A DNA stretch of 8,224 nucleotides from a virus. Taxonomy: Duplodnaviria > Heunggongvirae > Uroviricota > Caudoviricetes. The notes under the pieces are model-generated. The model saw nothing but the letters and a program-made list of their open reading frames with translations. It did not search any database and was not told the DNA's origin. A program made the translations under genes and the position numbers. Positions within the stretch are counted from its first letter, which is position 1. Each line of letters opens with the position of its first letter. The stretch covers positions 1 through 8,224 of the IMG/VR virus record IMGVR_UViG_2648501186_000018; one strand, given 5' to 3'. Of this stretch, positions 1 to 8,224 are shown one piece after another.

Positions 1-837
1 TTACGCCTTCTTTATATCCTCCATAATTTCAGAGTGGGACATATTTGGGACATTATCACCAAAAATGTCGTCTATTTTCCTCGCATGCTCTGTCAAATGA
101 TTAGGCGCAAGGTGAGCATACCTACGAACCATTTCTATGGACTCCCATCCGCCCATTTCCTGAAGCACTGATAATGGGACGCCTGACTGAATCAGCCAGC
201 TTGCCCAGGTGTGTCTGAGGTCATGGAAACGGAAATCTTCAATTCCTGCACGACGACAAGCTGATAGCCATGATGTCTTGCTGTCGATGCGCATCTTCCT
301 GACCGCAGGCGTTGATGTTCCATCTGCTCGCTTAGCCGCCTTGGTATGTACAAACACCCATTTGTGATGCTTGCCTATTTGATCACGCAACACTTTACAG
401 GCGGTATCGTTCAGCGCCACACCAATGGCGCGGTTTGATTTGCTCTCTTCTGGATTCACCCAGGCAACTCGTCGCTGCATGTCGATTTGTTGCCATTCCA
501 GATTTATGATGTTCGACTTTCTCAGACCAGTTGCCAGCGCAAACTTGACGACAGATTTCAGTGGTTCGGGGCACTCATCAATAAGGCGTTTTGCTTCCTC
601 CTTTTCCAGCCATCTGACTCGCTTGTTTCTGACCGCTGGTATCTTGATGACAGGCGCTTTTTCCAGCCACTTCCAGTCGCGTTCTGCAGCACGGAGAATG
701 GCCTTTATCATGGCAAGATGCTTTGCCTTTGTCTGAGTTGATACTGGCTTTGGTTCATAAACAGGCAGTTCTTTACCTTTCCTGATGGCGGCCTGAACTT
801 TCTGTTTCCATATTTCTTTCGTCTTTCTGTTATGCAT
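1..837 (-). CDS. int: Phage tyrosine integrase (DLP12 IntD-like), 5'-truncated. The homologous frame stays open up to 1026 but contains no ATG/GTG/TTG there; the first ATG at 837 gives 278 aa.
   Basis: The translation carries the tyrosine-recombinase C-terminal catalytic region (…[12 protein letters not shown]…[15 protein letters not shown]), with the HxxR box and the catalytic Tyr. Reading the same frame upstream of 837 gives …[55 protein letters not shown], which continues the integrase homology. The frame is closed by TGA at 1027-1029. The ~55 N-terminal residues (arm-binding domain) expected for this family are absent. Confidence 0.85.
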
Positions 838-1026
838 TCTGCTTACAGCAGAGTAAATCTTTGCCTCCGAGATATCTTTAAGCCTTATACCCTCAAAATG
901 TTCAAGCCAGAACTCAATCCGGCTTTTATCTGAATCGAGAGATTTTTTATCAGCTTTTTCCTCAAGCCATCTTAGGCAGGCCTCTTCAAAAGTGACATCA
1001 GGTACGCTGCAGGATAATGTCCGGTA

Positions 1027-1407
1027 TCATGCTGCCACCTTCTGCTCAGTGGCTTTCTGTTTCAGGAATCCAAGAGCTTTCACTGCTTCGGCCTGTGTCA
1101 GTTCTGACGATGCGCGAATGTCGCGGCGAAATATCTGGGAACAGAGCGGCAATAAGTCGTCATCCCATGTTTTATCCAGGGCGATCAGCAGAGTGTTAAT
1201 CTCCTGCATGGTTTCATCGTTAATGGCTTTTTTGCTGGCCCCGTGGCGTTGCAAATGATCGATGCATAGCGATTCAAACAGGTGCTGGGGCAGGCCTTTT
1301 TCCATGTCGTCTGCCAGTTCTGCCTCTTTCTCTTCACGGGCGATCTGCTGGTAGTAACGCGCCCAGCTCTGAGCCTCAAGACGATCCTGAATGTAATAAG
1401 CGTTCAT
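1027..1407 (-). CDS. Chimeric gam'-'bet ORF (126 aa). The first ~60 aa match lambda Gam from its internal GamS start; the last ~65 aa match the C-terminus of lambda Bet. Probable in-frame deletion product.
   Basis: N-terminus [60 protein letters not shown] matches the lambda Gam sequence as I recall it. C-terminus …[64 protein letters not shown] matches the end of lambda Bet as recalled. A strong Shine-Dalgarno AGGAG lies 7 nt upstream of the ATG at 1407. Both matches are from memory and need alignment to confirm. Confidence 0.75.
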
Positions 1408-1482
1408 GGCTGAACTCCTGAAAATGGCTGTGAAAATATCGCCCGCGAAATGCCAGGCTGATTAGGAAAACAGGAAAGGGGA

Positions 1483-1689
1483 TTAGCGATTCAGGCCGTT
1501 ACCGCGTCCGTCGAGAAAAACTTCCACGAGCAAATCACGGGTATAAGTGCGCTCGATGCCGCGATGCAGATAAAGCCGTCCGCGTAAATTAGCTGATGCA
1601 GTCCAGGTACCATCTTTGTGTTTGACCAGCATTCCTGGCATGACCGCACCTCGATTAACGGTCTGCGTTCCGTAATGTTGATGAACCAT
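1483..1689 (-). CDS. kil: Kil-like small protein (68 aa), similar to Rac KilR, a host FtsZ/cell-division inhibitor. The start is assigned to the ATG at 1689; the ORF track extends the frame to a TTG at 1893.
   Basis: An AGGAG Shine-Dalgarno sits 5 nt upstream of the ATG at 1687-1689. The product [68 protein letters not shown] aligns with my recollection of Rac KilR (shared PG…(V/L)xH…GT(W/Y)xASAN…R(K/R)LY…T(F/Y)xxD…(K/E)VFL). It lies immediately upstream of gam in the PL operon, which is the lambda kil position. The KilR match is from memory and needs confirmation. Confidence 0.55.
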
Positions 1690-1910
1690 AAAAACTCCTG
1701 CCCGTAAGCTGGGCTGCTGAACATATAGAGACTTCTGCGCGTATTCAGGCGGTGGATGGCCGCCGGTTGTCATAACTAAGCCGCCTCGTTGAAGCGACTG
1801 AGGTATAAAGTGTTGTGTTGATTTCAGCTGGTCACACCGACGTTCACGCGTCCGTTTCACCCCTCGCACTCCCCGAAGCCTGCTGAAATTCAAACTGCGG
1901 ATCTAAGCGG

Positions 1911-1962
1911 TCATCGCAACGGTGAAACAGGTGGTTACCGTATCGTTGTGTCGTTGCGATGA
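1911..1962 (-). repeat. Perfect 11-bp inverted repeat (TCATCGCAACG … CGTTGCGATGA) with a 30-nt spacer, at the 5' end of the predicted PL transcript.
   Basis: Read directly: 1911-1921 tcatcgcaacg and 1952-1962 cgttgcgatga are exact reverse complements. The spacer contains a second TCGTTG copy that could pair alternatively with the first arm. Confidence 0.7.
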
Positions 1963-1964
1963 AT

Positions 1965-2040
1965 TTATTTAAAACTATAGTTGTTTTATCGTCAACAACA
2001 AAAGTTGTTTTATCGGTTGTTTTAAATATAACTGGTTGTA
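1965..2040 (-). promoter_or_regulatory. PL promoter with OL operators (leftward early promoter).
   Basis: On the minus strand: -35 TTGACG (plus 1990-1995), 17-bp spacer, -10 TTAAAT (plus 1967-1972). The segment GTTGTTGACGATAAAACAACTATAGTTTTAAAT is near-identical to the PR segment GTTGTTGACTAAAAACAACCATAGTTTTAAT at 3514-3544. Operator-like elements: palindrome AACAAC-aaaa-GTTGTT at 1994-2009; GTTGTTTTATCG repeated at 1980-1991 and 2004-2015; further GTTGT copies at 2017-2021 and 2035-2039. Confidence 0.6.
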
Positions 2041-2132
2041 TTTAGGATGGATTTATTTTGTGACTTGCATCGCATAGCGATAACTGAAGTGAGGTGTGGT
2101 GGTTTTTTGGACGGTATGAGTTATGAGGGGGA

Positions 2133-2161
2133 GGAAAAGAAAACCCGGCGCGGTTGCCGGG
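2133..2161 (-). terminator. Rho-independent terminator ending the cI-lipoprotein transcript.
   Basis: GC stem cccggc (2144-2149) / gccggg (2156-2161) with loop gcggtt. On the minus strand it is followed by TTTTCTTTTCC, 9 nt downstream of the lipoprotein stop. Confidence 0.7.
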
Positions 2162-2169
2162 TATGATTA

Positions 2170-2550
2170 TCAGTCAGCCCAACCTGATTTCGAGTTTATT
2201 TGGGTTTCTGACATTGTGTATTTCTTAATCGTGTCATCGTTAAAAAGAATAGTAAGTTCTTTTTTCGTACCGTTCGTTCCGTTATGGAATAATCCATAGA
2301 ATGGAATAAAAGTGGTGCCATTAACTTTTACTTTTGCAAAGGCGTACTTCCAGATCTCCTTTCCACTGTCAGTATATGAAACAGCATCAGGAGAACCAAA
2401 GTAAGATTTAACCTCATTCTTGGTTGTTTTACCTTCCTGAAGTTTAGACTGGACACTAATTTCAGTTTCATTTTTGAGTTGCTGGTTGCCTGAAGAAGCA
2501 CACCCAGCCAATACAGATGCCATCATGGCAGCGATTAGGATTTTTCTCAT
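2170..2550 (-). CDS. Outer-membrane-type lipoprotein (126 aa) of unknown function, encoded immediately downstream of cI in the position lambda uses for rexAB.
   Basis: Signal peptide MRKILIAAMMASVLAGC with lipobox LAGC, and Ala at +2 after the Cys. An RBS GGAAAC precedes the start. The mature part shows a BamE/SmpA-OmlA-like motif pattern (G.T..EV...FG.PD…W.Y.F…LTILFN), which is my inference only. It is flanked by its own terminator and separated from cI by a 229-bp AT-rich spacer. Confidence 0.8.
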   Translation of the reverse strand: MRKILIAAMMASVLAGCASSGNQQLKNETEISVQSKLQEGKTTKNEVKSYFGSPDAVSYTDSGKEIWKYAFAKVKVNGTTFIPFYGLFHNGTNGTKKELTILFNDDTIKKYTMSETQINSKSGWAD

Positions 2551-2779
2551 TTTATGTTTCCATTCATTATAATCAGAAACATCTTAACATAATGATTCGA
2601 AATAAAAACCGCTACGAGATAGGGAGACATTTTGCTGACAGTAGCAACAAATCTCAGCTAACAACGAGAATATTTACTGAAATATGCAAACAGATTTGGC
2701 GTTCTTATAGAGAATTTAGTGCAATATCTAATCCGAGTGGTATAAACCTTAACCTTCGCTCCCTTAAGTCGTAGATAAA

Positions 2780-3469
2780 TTAACCATGCTTCCTGTACGT
2801 CTGCGGCATGCTTCCAATGACCTTACCGAATATGAACACCCGGTTCATCTCGTCTTTCTCGATCGGGTCCCACGGCGAGTAGCTCTTGTTATCAGAGATA
2901 ACCAGCAGCTTATCCTTCATCATTTGAAGACGTTTTACATGGGCAGTGTCGTCGTACAGAAACGCATAGATGCCATCACCGTCGAAAGATTTAACAGTGA
3001 TATCAACGAACAGCAGGTCACCTGGTTCGATCGTCCCTGACATGCTGTCACCTCGCACGTTAATGATGCGGATATTTTCCGCCTTCCTGCCATCGAACAT
3101 GTGACGAGCATCGTCAAACGAGTACTCAACCGAGCGTAGAACTTCTACAAACTCACGGTTGATTACACCTGGCCCGGCACTGACTTCTATATCAAGAACG
3201 TCAATTTTGAAGTATTTGGAATGGCTGACAGTTGATTGTATTGGTTGCACTGTACTGTCTGACATATTTCCAACGCCAGAAGATAACCATTCTGCGCGTA
3301 CACCCAAAGCGTTCGCGATCTCCACGATTTTAGTTGTTTGGTTAGCTTTCCCTGTTTCGATTTTCTGAATAGCAGCCTGGCTAACCCCGACCAAATCCCC
3401 AAGCGCCTTTTGTGTAAGGCCTCGCGCTAATCTGGCTTCTTTAAGTCTTTCTGAGAGTGTTGTTTTCAT
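2780..3469 (-). CDS. cI: CI-type prophage repressor: N-terminal XRE-family HTH plus C-terminal LexA-like S24 autopeptidase domain.
   Basis: HTH region LTQKALGDLVGVSQAAIQKIE. Ala-Gly cleavage site in EVSAGPG. Catalytic Ser in VRGDSM and Lys in HVKRL. It is divergent from cro across an operator region. The mRNA is probably leaderless or nearly so, since the PRM -10 lies about 7 nt upstream of the ATG. Confidence 0.95.
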   Translation of the reverse strand: MKTTLSERLKEARLARGLTQKALGDLVGVSQAAIQKIETGKANQTTKIVEIANALGVRAEWLSSGVGNMSDSTVQPIQSTVSHSKYFKIDVLDIEVSAGPGVINREFVEVLRSVEYSFDDARHMFDGRKAENIRIINVRGDSMSGTIEPGDLLFVDITVKSFDGDGIYAFLYDDTAHVKRLQMMKDKLLVISDNKSYSPWDPIEKDEMNRVFIFGKVIGSMPQTYRKHG

Positions 3470-3475
3470 AGATCA

Positions 3476-3546
3476 AATGTACAACCAAGGTTTTATTTCA
3501 TCAAACGAAAATGGTTGTTGACTAAAAACAACCATAGTTTTAATCT
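3476..3546. promoter_or_regulatory. OR operator region with divergent promoters PRM (leftward, cI) and PR (rightward, cro).
   Basis: PR: -35 TTGACT at 3518-3523, 17-bp spacer, -10 TAATCT at 3541-3546. PRM on the minus strand: -35 TTGATG (plus 3499-3504), 17-bp spacer, -10 TACATT (plus 3476-3481). Perfect 9-bp inverted repeat ATGGTTGTT-N7-AACAACCAT at 3511-3535 overlaps the PR -35. An additional ACAACCA half-site at 3481-3487 overlaps the PRM -10. Confidence 0.7.
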
Positions 3547-3573
3547 TGATTCGGATTAACCACGGAGGTTGTT

Positions 3574-3804
3574 ATGAACCCAGCAATCAAAACAGCGATC
3601 AATATCGTTGGTTCACAAAAGAAACTAGGCGATGCCTGCGAAGTTTCACAGCAGGCCGTCTATAAGTGGCTTCACAACAAAGCAAAGGTATCCCCTGAAC
3701 ATGTCGGCAGCATTGTTACGGCTACTGGTGGAGTTGTGAAGGCATACCAGATTCGCCCGGATCTTCCGAAGTTGTTTCCACACACCGAAAAGAACGCAGC
3801 TTAA
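3574..3804 (+). CDS. cro: Cro-like HTH regulator of the YdaS type (76 aa).
   Basis: First gene downstream of PR and divergent from cI. RBS GGAGG lies 6 nt upstream of the ATG. The family-like pattern AIxxxGSQxxLxxxxxVSQQAVxxW…GGV…RPDL matches the YdaS/Cro family as I recall it. Confidence 0.85.
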   Translation: MNPAIKTAINIVGSQKKLGDACEVSQQAVYKWLHNKAKVSPEHVGSIVTATGGVVKAYQIRPDLPKLFPHTEKNAA

Positions 3805-3816
3805 ATTTCCATTTCA

Positions 3817-3829
3817 CGCTCTTTAACAA
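3817..3829 (+). promoter_or_regulatory. boxA-like element (CGCTCTTTAACAA) in the cro-O spacer, at the nutR position; no convincing boxB hairpin follows.
   Basis: Matches the rrn/lambdoid boxA consensus GCTCTTTAACAA, 13 nt after the cro stop. Downstream there is only an AGTCAATT direct repeat (3847-3854 and 3867-3874), not a GC hairpin. Confidence 0.45.
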
Positions 3830-3873
3830 TAAGCAATCAACTTAACAGTCAATTCAAACTAAAGGAGTCAATT

Positions 3874-5046
3874 ATGCAACCACTTACATACCAACAGACT
3901 AGCGGATTTATTCCGACTGCGGTGATAAATCGTTCTCAAACAAAACAAGCTCCAGGCCACGAAAAAATCCGTGATGCCGTCCGCGCCTGGTCGGCTGTAG
4001 ATAATCAGGATGTCGTTGCCGCACTCATTGTGAATGAGTATCGGGAGCAGGGCGACGGCACCATCGATTTCCCTGATGATGTCAGCCGTGCACGCCAGAA
4101 GCTGTTCCGCTTCCTCGATAACAAATTCGATTCTGAAAAATACCGAAATAACGTGCGTGAACTGACCCCGGCAATTCTGGCGGTACTACCGCTGGAATAT
4201 CGCGGTTACCTGGTTGAGCAGGATAGCTTCATGACTCGGTTGGCCGGATTAACACAGCACCAGCTTCTGGTCTTCCTGGCTGTCATGCGCAAAACATATG
4301 GCTTTAATAAAAGACTGGATTGGGTGAGCAACGAGCAACTTTCCGAATTGACCGGGATATTGCCGCACAAGTGTTCTGCTGCAAAAAGCGTTCTGGTAAA
4401 GCGTGGGATTCTTATTCAGAGCGGGCGAAATATCGGCATTAATAATGTGGTCAGTGAATGGTCAACATTACCCGAATCAGGTAAGAAAAATAAAGTTTAC
4501 CTGAAAGAGGTAAATTTACCTGAATCAGGTAAGAAAAGTTTACCCAAATCAGGTAAAGGCGTTTACCCGAATCAGGTAAACACAAAAGACAAACTAACAA
4601 AAGACAATATAAAACCTTTTTCGTCCGAGAATTCTGGCGAATCCTCTGACCAGCCAGAAAACGACCTTCCTGTGGTGAAACCGGATGCTGCAATTCAGAG
4701 TGGCAGCAAGTGGGGGACAGCAGAAGACCTGACCGCCGCAGAGTGGATGTTTGACATGGTGAAGACCATCGCGCCATCAGCCAGAAAACCGAATTTTGCA
4801 GGGTGGGCTAACGATATCCGCCTGATGCGTGAACGTGACGGACGTAACCACCGCGACATGTGCGTGCTGTTCCGCTGGGCATGCCAGGACAACTTCTGGT
4901 CCGGTAACGTGCTGAGTCCGGCCAAACTCCGCGACAAGTGGACCCAGCTCGAAATCAACCGAAACAAGCAACAGGCTGGCGTGACAGCCGGCAAACCAAA
5001 ACTCGACCTGACGAACACTGACTGGATTTACGGGGTGGATTTATGA
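3874..5046 (+). CDS. O: Replication initiator, lambda O-like (390 aa), with the origin embedded in the gene.
   Basis: The N-terminal domain shares the lambda O signature (LTQHQLLVFLAVMRKTYGFNKRLDWVSNEQLSELTGILPHKCSAAKSVLVKRGILIQ versus lambda O LTKRQFKVLLAILRKTYGWNKPMDRITDSQLSEITKLP…). RBS AAGGAG precedes the start. The gene overlaps P by ATGA and contains the iterons listed separately. Confidence 0.9.
   Translation: MQPLTYQQTSGFIPTAVINRSQTKQAPGHEKIRDAVRAWSAVDNQDVVAALIVNEYREQGDGTIDFPDDVSRARQKLFRFLDNKFDSEKYRNNVRELTPAILAVLPLEYRGYLVEQDSFMTRLAGLTQHQLLVFLAVMRKTYGFNKRLDWVSNEQLSELTGILPHKCSAAKSVLVKRGILIQSGRNIGINNVVSEWSTLPESGKKNKVYLKEVNLPESGKKSLPKSGKGVYPNQVNTKDKLTKDNIKPFSSENSGESSDQPENDLPVVKPDAAIQSGSKWGTAEDLTAAEWMFDMVKTIAPSARKPNFAGWANDIRLMRERDGRNHRDMCVLFRWACQDNFWSGNVLSPAKLRDKWTQLEINRNKQQAGVTAGKPKLDLTNTDWIYGVDL
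4468..4579. repeat. Origin iterons: five 17-bp palindromic repeats TTACC-N7-GGTAA inside the O gene, followed by an A/T-rich stretch (4580-4622).
   Basis: Copies at 4468-4484, 4497-4513 (degenerate), 4516-4532, 4540-4556 and 4563-4579. They are mirrored in the protein as repeated PESGKK/PKSGK motifs. This is the lambda ori architecture, with different iteron sequence. Confidence 0.85.
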
Positions 5047-5744
5047 AAAACATCGCCGCACAGATGGTTAACTTTGACCGTGAGCAGATGCGCCGGATCG
5101 CCAACAATATGCCGGAACAGTACGACGAAAAGCCGCAGGTACAGCAGGTAGCGCAGATCATCAACGGTGTGTTCAGCCAGTTACTGGCAACTTTCCCGGC
5201 GAGCCTGGCTAACCGTGACCAGAATGAACTGAACGAAATCCGCCGCCAGTGGGTTCTGGCTTTCCGGGAAAACGGGATCACCACAATGGAACAGGTTAAC
5301 GCTGGAATGCGCGTAGCCCGTCGGCAGAATCGACCATTCCTGCCATCACCCGGGCAGTTTGTCGCCTGGTGCCGGGAAGAAGCATCTGTTAACGCCGGGC
5401 TGCCAAACGTCAGCGAGCTGGTTGATATGGTTTACGAGTATTGCCGGAAGCGTGGCCTGTATCCGGATGCAGAGTCTTATCCGTGGAAATCGAACGCGCA
5501 TTACTGGTTGGTTACCAACTTGTACCAGAACATGCGGGCCAATGCGCTGGCTGACGCGGAATTACGGCGCAAGGCTGCCGATGAACTGACCTGTATGACA
5601 GCGCGAATTAACCGTGGTGAGACGATACCTGAACCAGTAAAACAACTTCCTGTTATGGGCGGTAGACCTCTAAATCGTGCACAGGCTCTGGCGAAGATCG
5701 CAGAAATTAAAGCTAAGTTCGGACTGAAAGGAGCAAGTGTATGA
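5043..5744 (+). CDS. P: Replication protein P (DnaB helicase loader), nearly identical to lambda P.
   Basis: The 233-aa product MKNIAAQMVNFDREQMRRIANNMPEQYDEKPQVQQVAQIINGV…AKFGLKGASV matches lambda P as recalled, with only a few substitutions. The start overlaps the O stop (ATGA) and the stop overlaps the ren start. Confidence 0.95.
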   Translation: MKNIAAQMVNFDREQMRRIANNMPEQYDEKPQVQQVAQIINGVFSQLLATFPASLANRDQNELNEIRRQWVLAFRENGITTMEQVNAGMRVARRQNRPFLPSPGQFVAWCREEASVNAGLPNVSELVDMVYEYCRKRGLYPDAESYPWKSNAHYWLVTNLYQNMRANALADAELRRKAADELTCMTARINRGETIPEPVKQLPVMGGRPLNRAQALAKIAEIKAKFGLKGASV

Positions 5745-6043
5745 CGGGCAAAGAGGCAATTATTCATTACCTGGGGACGCATAAGAGCTTCTGTGCACAG
5801 GACGTTGCCGCGGTAACAGGCGCAACCGTAACCAGCATAAATCAGGCTGCGGCTAAAATGGCGCGGGCAGGAATCCTGGTCGTTGATGGTAAGGTCTGGC
5901 GAACGGTGTATTACCGGTTCGCTACCAGAGAAGAATGGGAAGGAAAGGTGAGCACGAATCTGATTTTTAAGGAGTGTCGCCAGAGTGCCGCGATGAAACG
6001 GGTATTGAGGGTATATAAAAGAACATCAATGGGAACACAATGA
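5741..6043 (+). CDS. ren: Ren (lambda ren-like; protects against Rex exclusion), 100 aa.
   Basis: MTGKEAIIHYLGTHKSFCAQDVAAVTGATVTSINQAAAKMARAGILVVDGKVWRTVYYRFATREEWEGK… matches lambda Ren as recalled. The C-terminal tail differs slightly. The start overlaps the P stop by ATGA. Confidence 0.9.
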   Translation: MTGKEAIIHYLGTHKSFCAQDVAAVTGATVTSINQAAAKMARAGILVVDGKVWRTVYYRFATREEWEGKVSTNLIFKECRQSAAMKRVLRVYKRTSMGTQ

Positions 6044-6060
6044 TGAAACAGGTGAGTTGA

Positions 6061-6095
6061 GTTCAAACTGTAGTACAATTCTCTCCAGTTTGAAC
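6061..6095 (+). repeat. Perfect 10-bp inverted repeat GTTCAAACTG-N15-CAGTTTGAAC in the emrE 5' leader.
   Basis: Read directly; it lies between the ren stop (6043) and the emrE RBS. No T-tract follows, so it is not a classical terminator. Confidence 0.6.
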
Positions 6096-6110
6096 AGGAA
6101 AGAATATGCT

Positions 6111-6443
6111 ATGAACCCTTATATTTATCTTGGTGGTGCAATACTTGCAGAGGTCATTGGTACAGCCTTAATGAAGTTTTCAGAAGGTTTTACACGGTTA
6201 TGGCCATCTGTTGGTACAATTATTTGTTATTGTGCATCATTCTGGTTATTAGCTCAGACGCTGGCTTATATTCCTACAGGGATTGCTTATGCTATCTGGT
6301 CAGGAGTCGGTATTGTCCTGATTAGCTTACTGTCATGGGGATTTTTCGGCCAACGGCTGGACCTGCCAGCCATTATAGGCATGATGTTGATTTGTGCCGG
6401 TGTGTTGATTATTAATTTATTGTCACGAAGCACACCACATTAA
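6111..6443 (+). CDS. emrE: EmrE small multidrug resistance (SMR) efflux transporter, 110 aa.
   Basis: The product MNPYIYLGGAILAEVIGT.LMKFSEGFTRLWPSVGTIICYCASFWLLAQTLAYIPTGIAYAIWSGVGIVLISLLSWGFFGQRLDLPAIIGMMLICAGVLIINLLSRSTPH matches E. coli EmrE as recalled, with four TM-like hydrophobic segments. The ORF-track start at 6057 is a TTG extension; the real start is the ATG at 6111, preceded by AGGAAAG. Confidence 0.95.
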   Translation: MNPYIYLGGAILAEVIGTALMKFSEGFTRLWPSVGTIICYCASFWLLAQTLAYIPTGIAYAIWSGVGIVLISLLSWGFFGQRLDLPAIIGMMLICAGVLIINLLSRSTPH

Positions 6444-6473
6444 AATAATTTGTTTCTAAACGACTAAAATATG

Positions 6474-6512
6474 GAGGCTCTTATATTTATATGAGCCTCG
6501 TTTTATGCTTTT
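6474..6512 (+). terminator. Rho-independent terminator downstream of emrE.
   Basis: Stem gaggctc (6474-6480) / gagcctc (6493-6499) with a 12-nt AT loop, followed by TTTTATGCTTTTT. Confidence 0.65.
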
Positions 6513-6697
6513 TGTTAATGTCTTTATTTTTTATGTATTCTTTTGTGCTTTCAAGATTATGGCGTAAGAAAATTGCAATACGATTATTGTTGTATATTCA
6601 AGATAATGTGACCTTAATTGTCTTTTTAAATAAAAAATAAACAAAAATTATATCCCACCACTAAGGTTTATAAAAGCATACGTTAGCAGGTGTCACC

Positions 6698-8224
6698 ATG
6701 AAAAAAGCCATAGCATATATGCGATTTTCATCACCAGGTCAGATGTCTGGCGACTCATTAAACCGACAGAGAAGACTTATTGCTGAATGGTTAAAGGTAA
6801 ATAGTGATTATTATCTTGATACCATAACATATGAAGATTTAGGATTAAGTGCATTCAAAGGAAAGCATGCACAATCAGGAGCTTTTTCGGAATTTTTAGA
6901 TGCTATAGAGCATGGTTATATATTGCCAGGAACTACATTGTTAGTTGAAAGTCTGGACAGACTTTCAAGAGAAAAAGTCGGTGAAGCGATTGAACGTCTG
7001 AAATTGATTTTGAATCACGGTATTGATGTTATAACTCTTTGCGACAATACAGTCTATAATATTGGCTCTTTGAATGAGCCATATTCATTAATAAAAGCCA
7101 TACTTATAGCACAAAGGGCAAATGAAGAAAGCGAGATAAAGTCAAGTCGGGTTAAATTATCATGGAAGAAAAAACGGCAGGATGCACTGGAATCAGGTAC
7201 GATTATGACGGCGTCTTGTCCGAGATGGCTCTCCTTAGATGACAAAAGAACGGCTTTTGTTCCAGACCCCGACAGGGTGAAAACTATTGAGCTAATTTTT
7301 AAACTCAGGATGGAAAGGCGCTCATTGAATGCAATAGCCAAGTATTTAAATGATCATGCTGTAAAGAATTTCTCAGGAAAAGAAAGTGCATGGGGACCTT
7401 CTGTAATTGAAAAATTATTAGCGAATAAAGCTCTGATAGGTATTTGCGTACCTTCATATCGTGCAAGAGGGAAAGGGATAAGTGAAATCGCTGGCTATTA
7501 TCCCAGAGTCATATCAGATGATTTGTTTTACGCTGTACAGGAAATTCGGTTGGCACCTTTTGGTATTAGCAATAGTAGCAAGAATCCTATGCTAATAAAT
7601 CTACTTCGAACAGTTATGAAGTGTGAGGCTTGTGGTAATACCATGATTGTTCATGCGGTATCTGGAAGTTTGCATGGCTATTATGTTTGTCCGATGAGAA
7701 GATTACATCGATGTGACAGGCCATCAATAAAAAGAGATTTGGTTGATTATAATATCATTAATGAATTGCTTTTTAATTGTAGCAAAATTCAACCAGTTGA
7801 AAACAAGAAAGATGCTAATGAAACTTTAGAGTTAAAAATTATTGAGCTTCAGATGAAAATTAATAATTTAATCGTTGCATTGTCTGTCGCGCCTGAAGTT
7901 ACCGCTATAGCAGAGAAAATAAGACTATTAGATAAGGAATTACGAAGGGCTTCGGTATCATTGAAAACTTTGAAGAGTAAAGGTGTAAATTCATTCAGTG
8001 ATTTTTATGCTATTGACTTAACCAGTAAAAATGGACGAGAGTTATGCCGTACACTTGCCTATAAAACATTCGAAAAAATCATAATTAATACGGATAATAA
8101 AACCTGTGATATCTATTTTATGAATGGCATTGTTTTTAAACACTATCCTTTAATGAAAGTAATATCCGCCCAGCAGGCGATAAGTGCTCTCAAATATATG
8201 GTTGATGGTGAGATTTATTTCTAA
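6698..8224 (+). CDS. ybcK: Large serine recombinase, YbcK-like (508 aa): resolvase-type catalytic domain, recombinase domain, zinc-ribbon and coiled-coil.
   Basis: N-terminal catalytic motif AYMRFSSPGQ…R with the Ser nucleophile. Cys-rich zinc-ribbon CEACGN…CPMRRLHRC. Coiled-coil segment LELKIIELQMKINNLIVAL. RBS AGGTG lies 6 nt upstream. It follows emrE as in K-12 DLP12 (from memory). Confidence 0.9.
   Translation: MKKAIAYMRFSSPGQMSGDSLNRQRRLIAEWLKVNSDYYLDTITYEDLGLSAFKGKHAQSGAFSEFLDAIEHGYILPGTTLLVESLDRLSREKVGEAIERLKLILNHGIDVITLCDNTVYNIGSLNEPYSLIKAILIAQRANEESEIKSSRVKLSWKKKRQDALESGTIMTASCPRWLSLDDKRTAFVPDPDRVKTIELIFKLRMERRSLNAIAKYLNDHAVKNFSGKESAWGPSVIEKLLANKALIGICVPSYRARGKGISEIAGYYPRVISDDLFYAVQEIRLAPFGISNSSKNPMLINLLRTVMKCEACGNTMIVHAVSGSLHGYYVCPMRRLHRCDRPSIKRDLVDYNIINELLFNCSKIQPVENKKDANETLELKIIELQMKINNLIVALSVAPEVTAIAEKIRLLDKELRRASVSLKTLKSKGVNSFSDFYAIDLTSKNGRELCRTLAYKTFEKIIINTDNKTCDIYFMNGIVFKHYPLMKVISAQQAISALKYMVDGEIYF

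Follow-up and report, generated by a model that had tools for sequence, protein, structure and literature searches.

Deletional decay of the cryptic prophage DLP12 is well known. DLP12 is the most prevalent cryptic prophage of E. coli, being found in 74% of 638 genomes (PMC6379469), and in K-12, where it carries a full intD, excision occurs in fewer than 1 per 100,000 cells (PMC3105296). The left arm of the K-12 copy, which kept this full-length intD, has suffered two independent deletions with 2-bp overlaps; one removed xis to orf60a and the other 5.9 kb from the 5' part of exo through the 5' part of P (gam, bet, kil, cI, cro and O), and an IS3 element lies in ren. The proteins encoded by gam and bet have been characterized structurally in phage lambda. 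Gam works as a dimer; it occupies the place of duplex DNA on RecBCD and extends one N-terminal helix into the RecB ssDNA channel (PMC5218532). Residues 183-261 of Redβ constitute an autonomous C-terminal domain (CTD), ordered from Thr195, whose three-helix bundle binds lambda Exo and the SSB C-tail (PMC6393309). Also related to the locus described here are 2G7b (Nesevirus) and PhiR26_1, which have been deposited as complete phage genomes and in which gam, bet, exo, xis and int are all full-length.

The stretch of DNA that we analysed, hereafter the window, is 8,224 bases long and over its whole length a 100% match to E. coli ETEC1706 (NZ_CP122904.1; pig faeces, Belgium), where it starts on the reverse strand at 3531648, 15 bases past tRNA-Arg (argU). 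The strains ETEC4073 and ETEC4090 differ from it by 1 base each. Since the window is identical to ETEC1706 and starts just past argU, its left end is the left arm (int to pL) of a cryptic DLP12 that sits at argU in an ETEC lineage of pigs. The gene order in the window is int', 'bet, gam', kil, a lipoprotein gene, a gene for a cI-like S24 repressor, cro, O, P, ren, emrE, ylcJ and ybcK. Beyond the window, ETEC1706 continues with ybcL (split by IS3), ybcM, ybcN, ninE, ybcO, rusA, ylcG, quuD and a porin gene, followed by essD, rrrD, rzpD, bor, ybcV, ybcW, ylcI and a truncated nohD, and the far end comprises a fragment of J and one of a tail-fibre assembly gene before the host genes appY and ompT are reached. 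An exact 47-bp copy of the argU 3' end is located between envY and ompT, which is the position of attR, and this repeat is intact. The element therefore combines the argU site, the 47-bp att repeat and the DLP12 gene set devoid of morphogenesis genes, as expected for cryptic DLP12. The gene content of the source genome reveals no head or tail genes in the remainder of the element, which renders it cryptic whatever the state of int. The preliminary description of this DNA had supposed a cryptic prophage on the basis of its left arm, and the truncated nohD, the J fragment and the missing head and tail genes bear this out.

Integration site and 47-bp att repeat are common to the window and K-12 DLP12, and shared segments are 99.3-100% identical (argU and intD 99.3%; ren, emrE, ylcJ and ybcK 99.9-100%). 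The late region is likewise the same, with ybcL-N, rusA, quuD, a porin gene at the nmpC position, essD-rrrD-rzpD, bor and the truncated nohD. In contrast to K-12, however, the window keeps kil, cI, cro, P and ren and carries three deletions of its own. With phage lambda it shares the gene order, an overlap of the bet stop with the exo start as ATGA, and 97-98% DNA identity in what survives of gam and bet/exo; the exact values (gam 97.0%, bet/exo 97.8%) mean that a chance match is of no concern. Unlike lambda, the window has an integrase of the argU-specific IntD type rather than lambda Int, encodes Gam only in its GamS length, and has gam, bet, exo and int all truncated. PhiR26_1 has the same left-arm gene order and, from the exo stub to cI (window positions 1001-2800), an identity of 99.3%; in 2G7b, the int gene matches window positions 1-1004 with 99.8% identity. 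Relative to these two phages the window is a decayed relative, and since their int-xis-DUF4222 segment is 100% identical to that of the undeleted sister prophage, the integration module was probably functional until the deletion that we designate B. Considering all of this, we hold with high confidence that the region is the DLP12 left arm in a state of stepwise deletional decay and that the gam-bet and int remnants are pseudogenes. Features and junctions are compiled in Table 1.

Table 1. Features of the window and the three deletion junctions, with the evidence for each.
Feature	Position	Strand	Evidence
intD 3' part, codons 55-387 and stop; complete catalytic domain, no start codon	1..1004	-	identity to ETEC1716 intD, Pfam, PGAP
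Residual 278-aa int ORF from internal Met110 of IntD, ATG at 837	1..837	-	ORF list
exo stub: ATG 1030-1028, 10 codons, TGA across the junction at 1000-998	998..1030	-	comparison with Exo of EC42405 (L003) and lambda
Junction B, 4-bp microhomology GGTA; 1606-bp deletion joining int codon 54/55 to exo codon 10	1001..1004		
gam'-'bet chimeric ORF, in frame, 126 aa, ATG start	1027..1407	-	ORF list, translation, Pfam, PDB search
bet 3' part, codons 198-261 and stop; entire ordered Redβ C-terminal three-helix domain	1027..1220	-	PDB matches
Junction A, 3-bp microhomology TAA; 707-bp deletion joining bet to gam	1221..1223		BLAST segments against EC42405 (L003)
gam 5' part, codons 1-62 of a 98-codon GamS-type gene	1224..1407	-	sequence, Pfam, PDB matches
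Native gam Shine-Dalgarno AGGAG, 7 nt upstream of the ATG	1415..1419	-	
kil, intact FtsZ inhibitor, upstream of the chimera in the leftward operon	1483..1689	-	NCBIfam NF008465, Pfam KilR, PGAP
Putative pL, TTGACG-17 nt-TTAAAT, inside the OL operator repeats	1965..1998	-	inverted repeats and sequence (inference)
Junction C, 4-bp microhomology TGGC; 383-bp deletion	4241..4244		

The reading frame at 1027-1407 had been proposed to start as Gam and end as Bet as a consequence of an internal deletion, and comparison with the prophage of strain EC42405 (locus L003), in which gam and bet are intact and the flanks are 100% identical, allowed us to map this deletion. Window positions 1001-1223 correspond to L003 5001-5223 and positions 1221-2800 to L003 5928-7507, and the missing 707 bp are L003 5224-5930. 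They comprise gam codons 63-98, the 5-nt intergenic spacer and bet codons 1-197. The two genes are encoded in different frames, and as 707 leaves a remainder of 2 when divided by three, the deletion brought them into the same one. In the resulting protein, residues 1-62 are those of Gam in the sister prophage, and from residue 63 to the end at 126 the sequence is that of Bet 198-261 from the same prophage, in agreement with the proposed in-frame chimera. One contiguous parental arrangement accounts for both flanks with 100% identity, and mosaic recombination between phages was therefore ruled out as the origin of the fusion.

Domain searches delimit what is left of either protein. The chimera matches the Pfam Gam family (PF06064) with residues 1-64, which cover model positions 1-64 of 98, while Gam of the sister prophage covers positions 1-98; no Pfam match to RecT (PF03837) was found in the chimera. 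In intact Bet the RecT match spans residues 24-183; none of these is left in the chimera, and the annealing and oligomerisation domain (Redβ 1-177) is accordingly gone. The protein is therefore not a full-length member of either family. In a PDB sequence search, the Gam entries 2UUZ and 5MBV covered residues 1-63, and the entries 8TFU and 6M9K, which contain the Bet C-terminal domain, covered residues 61-126. Compared to these structures, the chimera is without Gam 63-98 and the Redβ annealing domain, and among solved or described proteins we found none that combines an N-terminal piece of Gam with the Redβ CTD. Against the 5MBV and 2UUZ Gam chains, residues 1-63 show 4 differing positions, including K61 to A in the aligned tail, and the long N-terminal helix that occupies the RecB ssDNA channel is present by sequence. 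Residues 62-125 align with positions 4-67 of 67 in 6M9K chain D with one difference, A255T; ordered residues of the CTD begin at 195, the chimera has 198-261, and all nine reported contact residues (L223, Q226, I227, R229, F249, L250, Q252, K253 and E256) are kept. The surviving part of Bet is hence a complete, independently folding domain and not a random tail, although its retention is a curiosity with no evidence of function. AlphaFold2, run on the chimera without an alignment, returned a poor model (mean pLDDT 44.6, pTM 0.26) from which no more than an all-helical secondary-structure pattern can be taken. Because 36 of the 98 Gam residues (63-98) are missing, the chimera likely has no intact RecBCD-binding fold, and Gam function is likely lost.

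To define the distribution of the fusion, a probe of 151 bases across junction A was searched in 5426 complete E. coli genomes and was found contiguous in seven, all from pigs: UMNF18, P13-6, HNSQ2209, ETEC1716, ETEC1706, ETEC4073 and ETEC4090. The junction DNA is 100% identical in these genomes, which come from several countries. In a large protein collection, the exact 126-aa sequence was present on 99 contigs, and the chimera accounted for 172 index blocks. Four further alleles (P0002, P0007, P0009 and P0011) have the identical junction and 1-3 substitutions each, and all five keep the full 126-aa frame. Most of the substitutions restore residues of the lambda type in the Gam portion (Y18H, I22L), a pattern suggestive of gene conversion with other lambdoid prophages, and five full-length alleles fit a recent origin and are also compatible with selection. 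RefSeq/PGAP annotates the gam and bet pieces as two partial pseudogenes. The same protein has often been deposited as 'recombinase RecT', a mislabel in several database records that is worth correcting.

We were wondering whether the chimera might be a functional new protein kept by selection, for instance a modulator of recombination or anti-defence or a decoy in which the Gam helix for the RecB channel would be linked to a three-helix bundle that binds SSB and Exo, and consider this improbable. The fusion is in frame and has the native gam Shine-Dalgarno, which makes it translatable if transcribed, and both the ordered Redβ CTD with every reported Exo-contact residue and the Gam helix that inserts into RecBCD (PMC5218532) have been preserved. 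However, a random deletion yields an in-frame product in one of three cases, and the persistence of the exact sequence on so many contigs, and of five full-length alleles, carries little information in a narrow and near-clonal lineage with identical DNA in seven genomes. Moreover, one sub-lineage later lost exo, whose product is the partner of the CTD, and an intact cI-like repressor keeps the operon repressed. Gam is active as a dimer, the body of which imitates duplex DNA (PMC5218532); over a third of the Gam residues are gone, and PGAP treats the frame as two pseudogene fragments. A more specific version, in which the chimera would be expressed on derepression and attach to SSB, or to Exo supplied by a lambdoid phage in the same cell, while presenting the Gam helix to the RecB channel, appears just as improbable; if true, a deletion in a prophage would have created a new combination of domains in nature. 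We thus return to decay as the preferred explanation: the chimera and the int remnant are products of ordinary prophage decay and nothing new in kind, and RefSeq already flags three remnants as partial pseudogenes.

Junction B was resolved by comparison with ETEC1716 (locus L002), where intact exo, orf60a, orf63, DUF4222, xis and full intD are located between flanks that are 100% identical to the window. Window positions 1-1004 equal L002 6001-7004, positions 1001-2800 equal L002 8607-10406, and the missing 1606 bp are L002 7005-8610. This deletion took exo codons 11-226, orf60a (DUF1317), orf63 (DUF1382), DUF4222 and xis as well as the region upstream of int together with int codons 1-54. The two junctions in the left arm are hence true deletions, given that sister genomes with identical flanks retain the missing DNA. 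The int remnant begins inside codon 54 of the 387-aa IntD, with P55 as the first intact codon, and is 100% identical to residues 55-387 of IntD from ETEC1716; a loss of about 55 N-terminal codons had been estimated beforehand, and 54 were counted by alignment. Its Phage_integrase match (PF00589) spans model positions 1-171 of 172, consistent with a complete catalytic domain, while the start codon and the N-terminal domain (residues 1-54) are deleted and PGAP labels the remnant 'site-specific integrase, incomplete, missing N-terminus' (pseudogene). The first in-frame ATG, GTG or TTG is indeed the ATG at 837, as stated in the preliminary description, and no recognisable Shine-Dalgarno was found in the sequence upstream of it, AAAGATTTACTCTGCTGTAAGCAGA followed by ATG. 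The same description had exo and xis absent altogether. This holds for xis, but not for exo, of which the ATG and 10 codons remain at 1030-1001, too little to encode the nuclease domain of lambda exonuclease (YqaJ fold). The stub begins within the ATGA overlap with the bet stop.

For residues 1-54 of IntD, the Pfam search gave only a weak, sub-threshold match to DUF6538, and neither a solved structure nor a curated arm-binding domain was found by PDB sequence search and in Pfam. We presume that this missing N-terminus resembles the arm-binding domain of lambda Int, and by this analogy it is probably an arm-binding domain. As to the excisionase of this phage group, a likely candidate is an ORF of 123 aa that shares 145 nt with the start of int (L003 2732-3100, minus strand; equivalents in L002, L007 and L008). 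It matches Pfam HTH_17 above the cut-off and the excisionase family TIGR01764 just below it. In RefSeq and phage records this ORF is unannotated or reduced to a 66-nt fragment, and one gene caller predicted it (L014 6936-7307, HTH_17).

The chimera and the int remnant are separated by a single TGA at 1029-1027, as had been pointed out before. This stop codon is in frame with int, whose reading frame continues without interruption from 1026. It is conceivable that read-through of the UGA, or translational coupling, gives rise to a partly active recombinase, either a Gam'-Bet'-linker-Int(55-387) fusion or a fragment of Int made by restart; the int remnant continues the frame of the TGA for 341 sense codons and contains the whole catalytic domain. 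Nevertheless, we regard this as highly unlikely. The TGA is the native bet stop, the 8 'linker' codons between it and P55 are the exo stub read out of frame, and the frame match is what a random deletion produces in one of three cases, a coincidence with no evident meaning. Furthermore, there is neither xis nor an N-terminal Int domain and, by analogy to lambda Int, recombination between attL and attR would still fail.

The distribution of the junctions also reveals their order. The junction B probe was contiguous only in ETEC1706, ETEC4073 and ETEC4090, that is in three of the seven genomes with junction A, which means that B is nested in A and that the deletions were sequential. Reading 24 contigs that encode the chimera, we found that about 22 keep exo and full int, about 19 in the ETEC1716 arrangement and 3 with an added IS3-family insertion in orf60a as in UMNF18, and that 2 have the arrangement of the window. 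UMNF18 had been a candidate for keeping a traR/orf61 segment, which was ruled out; its left arm is that of ETEC1716 with the IS3-family insertion. That the deletions are assembly or sequencing artefacts of one genome is hardly credible, since junction A was seen in many draft and metagenome contigs besides seven complete genomes, which are independent of each other and come from several countries, junction B in three complete genomes and in the separate draft assembly GCA_021646955.1, and junction C on 25 contigs. No evidence contradicting the deletion model was found.

Based on these data we propose that decay of the left arm proceeded in steps. First, an illegitimate 707-bp deletion between two TAA triplets, in the common ancestor of the seven complete genomes and many drafts, by chance generated the in-frame 126-aa Gam(1-62)::Redβ(198-261) ORF behind the native gam ribosome-binding site. 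Subsequently, in the sub-lineage of ETEC1706, ETEC4073 and ETEC4090, a 1606-bp deletion between two GGTA tetramers followed, and a separate 383-bp deletion fused ydaT to O. Lacking Xis and an Int with start codon and N-terminal domain, the prophage would be unable to excise by itself despite its intact 47-bp att repeats. Likewise, without the Redβ annealing domain and Exo, no Red recombination would be expected, and judged by domain content RecBCD inhibition would very probably be lost with the C-terminal third of Gam. In this respect the locus is a cleanly resolved case of a lambdoid prophage 'grounded' by successive short-microhomology deletions, with intermediate decay states preserved in sister genomes and an independent path at the same locus in K-12. 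Given that the K-12 deletions arose independently, and also with short microhomology, serial deletion of this kind is a recurrent mode of DLP12 decay. The junctions could, in addition, be used as lineage markers for a porcine ETEC group.

Junction C was analysed in the same manner. The ORF at 3874-5046 encodes a 390-aa 'replication protein' that consists of YdaT-like residues 1-124 fused in frame to residues 72-339 of O, and the deletion removes the O N-terminus (Pfam Phage_rep_O positions 1-22). Because BLAST joins pieces across the short 383-bp gap (2109 'full' hits across E. coli), membership was checked locus by locus. Among the loci fetched, junction C was present only in ETEC1706, ETEC4073 and ETEC4090 and absent from ETEC1716, UMNF18 and EC42405. 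The 25 contigs mentioned above encode the exact YdaT-O fusion protein, which RefSeq calls an ordinary replication protein and not a pseudogene.

As for expression of the left arm, inverted repeats pair OL/pL (1969-2013) with OR/pR (3500-3543), and the putative pL would drive kil, gam'-'bet, exo' and 'int. Transcription of the remnants would require that the intact cI-like repressor be inactivated so that pL can fire. The regions around both promoters (1965-2013 and 3500-3545) are inverted copies with operator half-sites GTTGTT...AACAAC. No N-like antiterminator gene is evident in the approximately 270 nt between pL and kil. Ahead of the annotated start of kil, the long ORF at 1483-1893 encodes a run rich in arginine, VKRTRERRC; at this place a 125-aa 'Kil' is annotated in PhiR26_1. 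A promoter scan of positions 1-3900 showed no enrichment over shuffles, and an Rfam scan of the whole window gave no matches.

The lipoprotein gene (2143-2550, 126 aa) is located downstream of the repressor gene, which is the position of rexAB in lambda, and shows weak BamE/Ag473-type matches, all below cut-offs. A strong intrinsic terminator follows it (2162-2143), the sole clear terminator in the scanned region. The gene is probably a lysogenic-conversion moron.

Several smaller changes were seen across the lineage. In ETEC1706, IS3 lies in ybcL (L005 23320-24482); UMNF18 (L011) has its IS3-family element in orf60a at 4562-5775 and an IS2 in ybcK at 13162-14390; and ybcK of ETEC1716 is frameshifted. 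An internal stop in the neighbouring host gene sfmD is common to the three Belgian strains ETEC1706, ETEC4073 and ETEC4090. Finally, EmrE (6111-6443) carries a T19A substitution compared to both K-12 and the EC42405 sister prophage, and over window positions 4245-7417 no more than 5 bases differ from EC42405, this change included.
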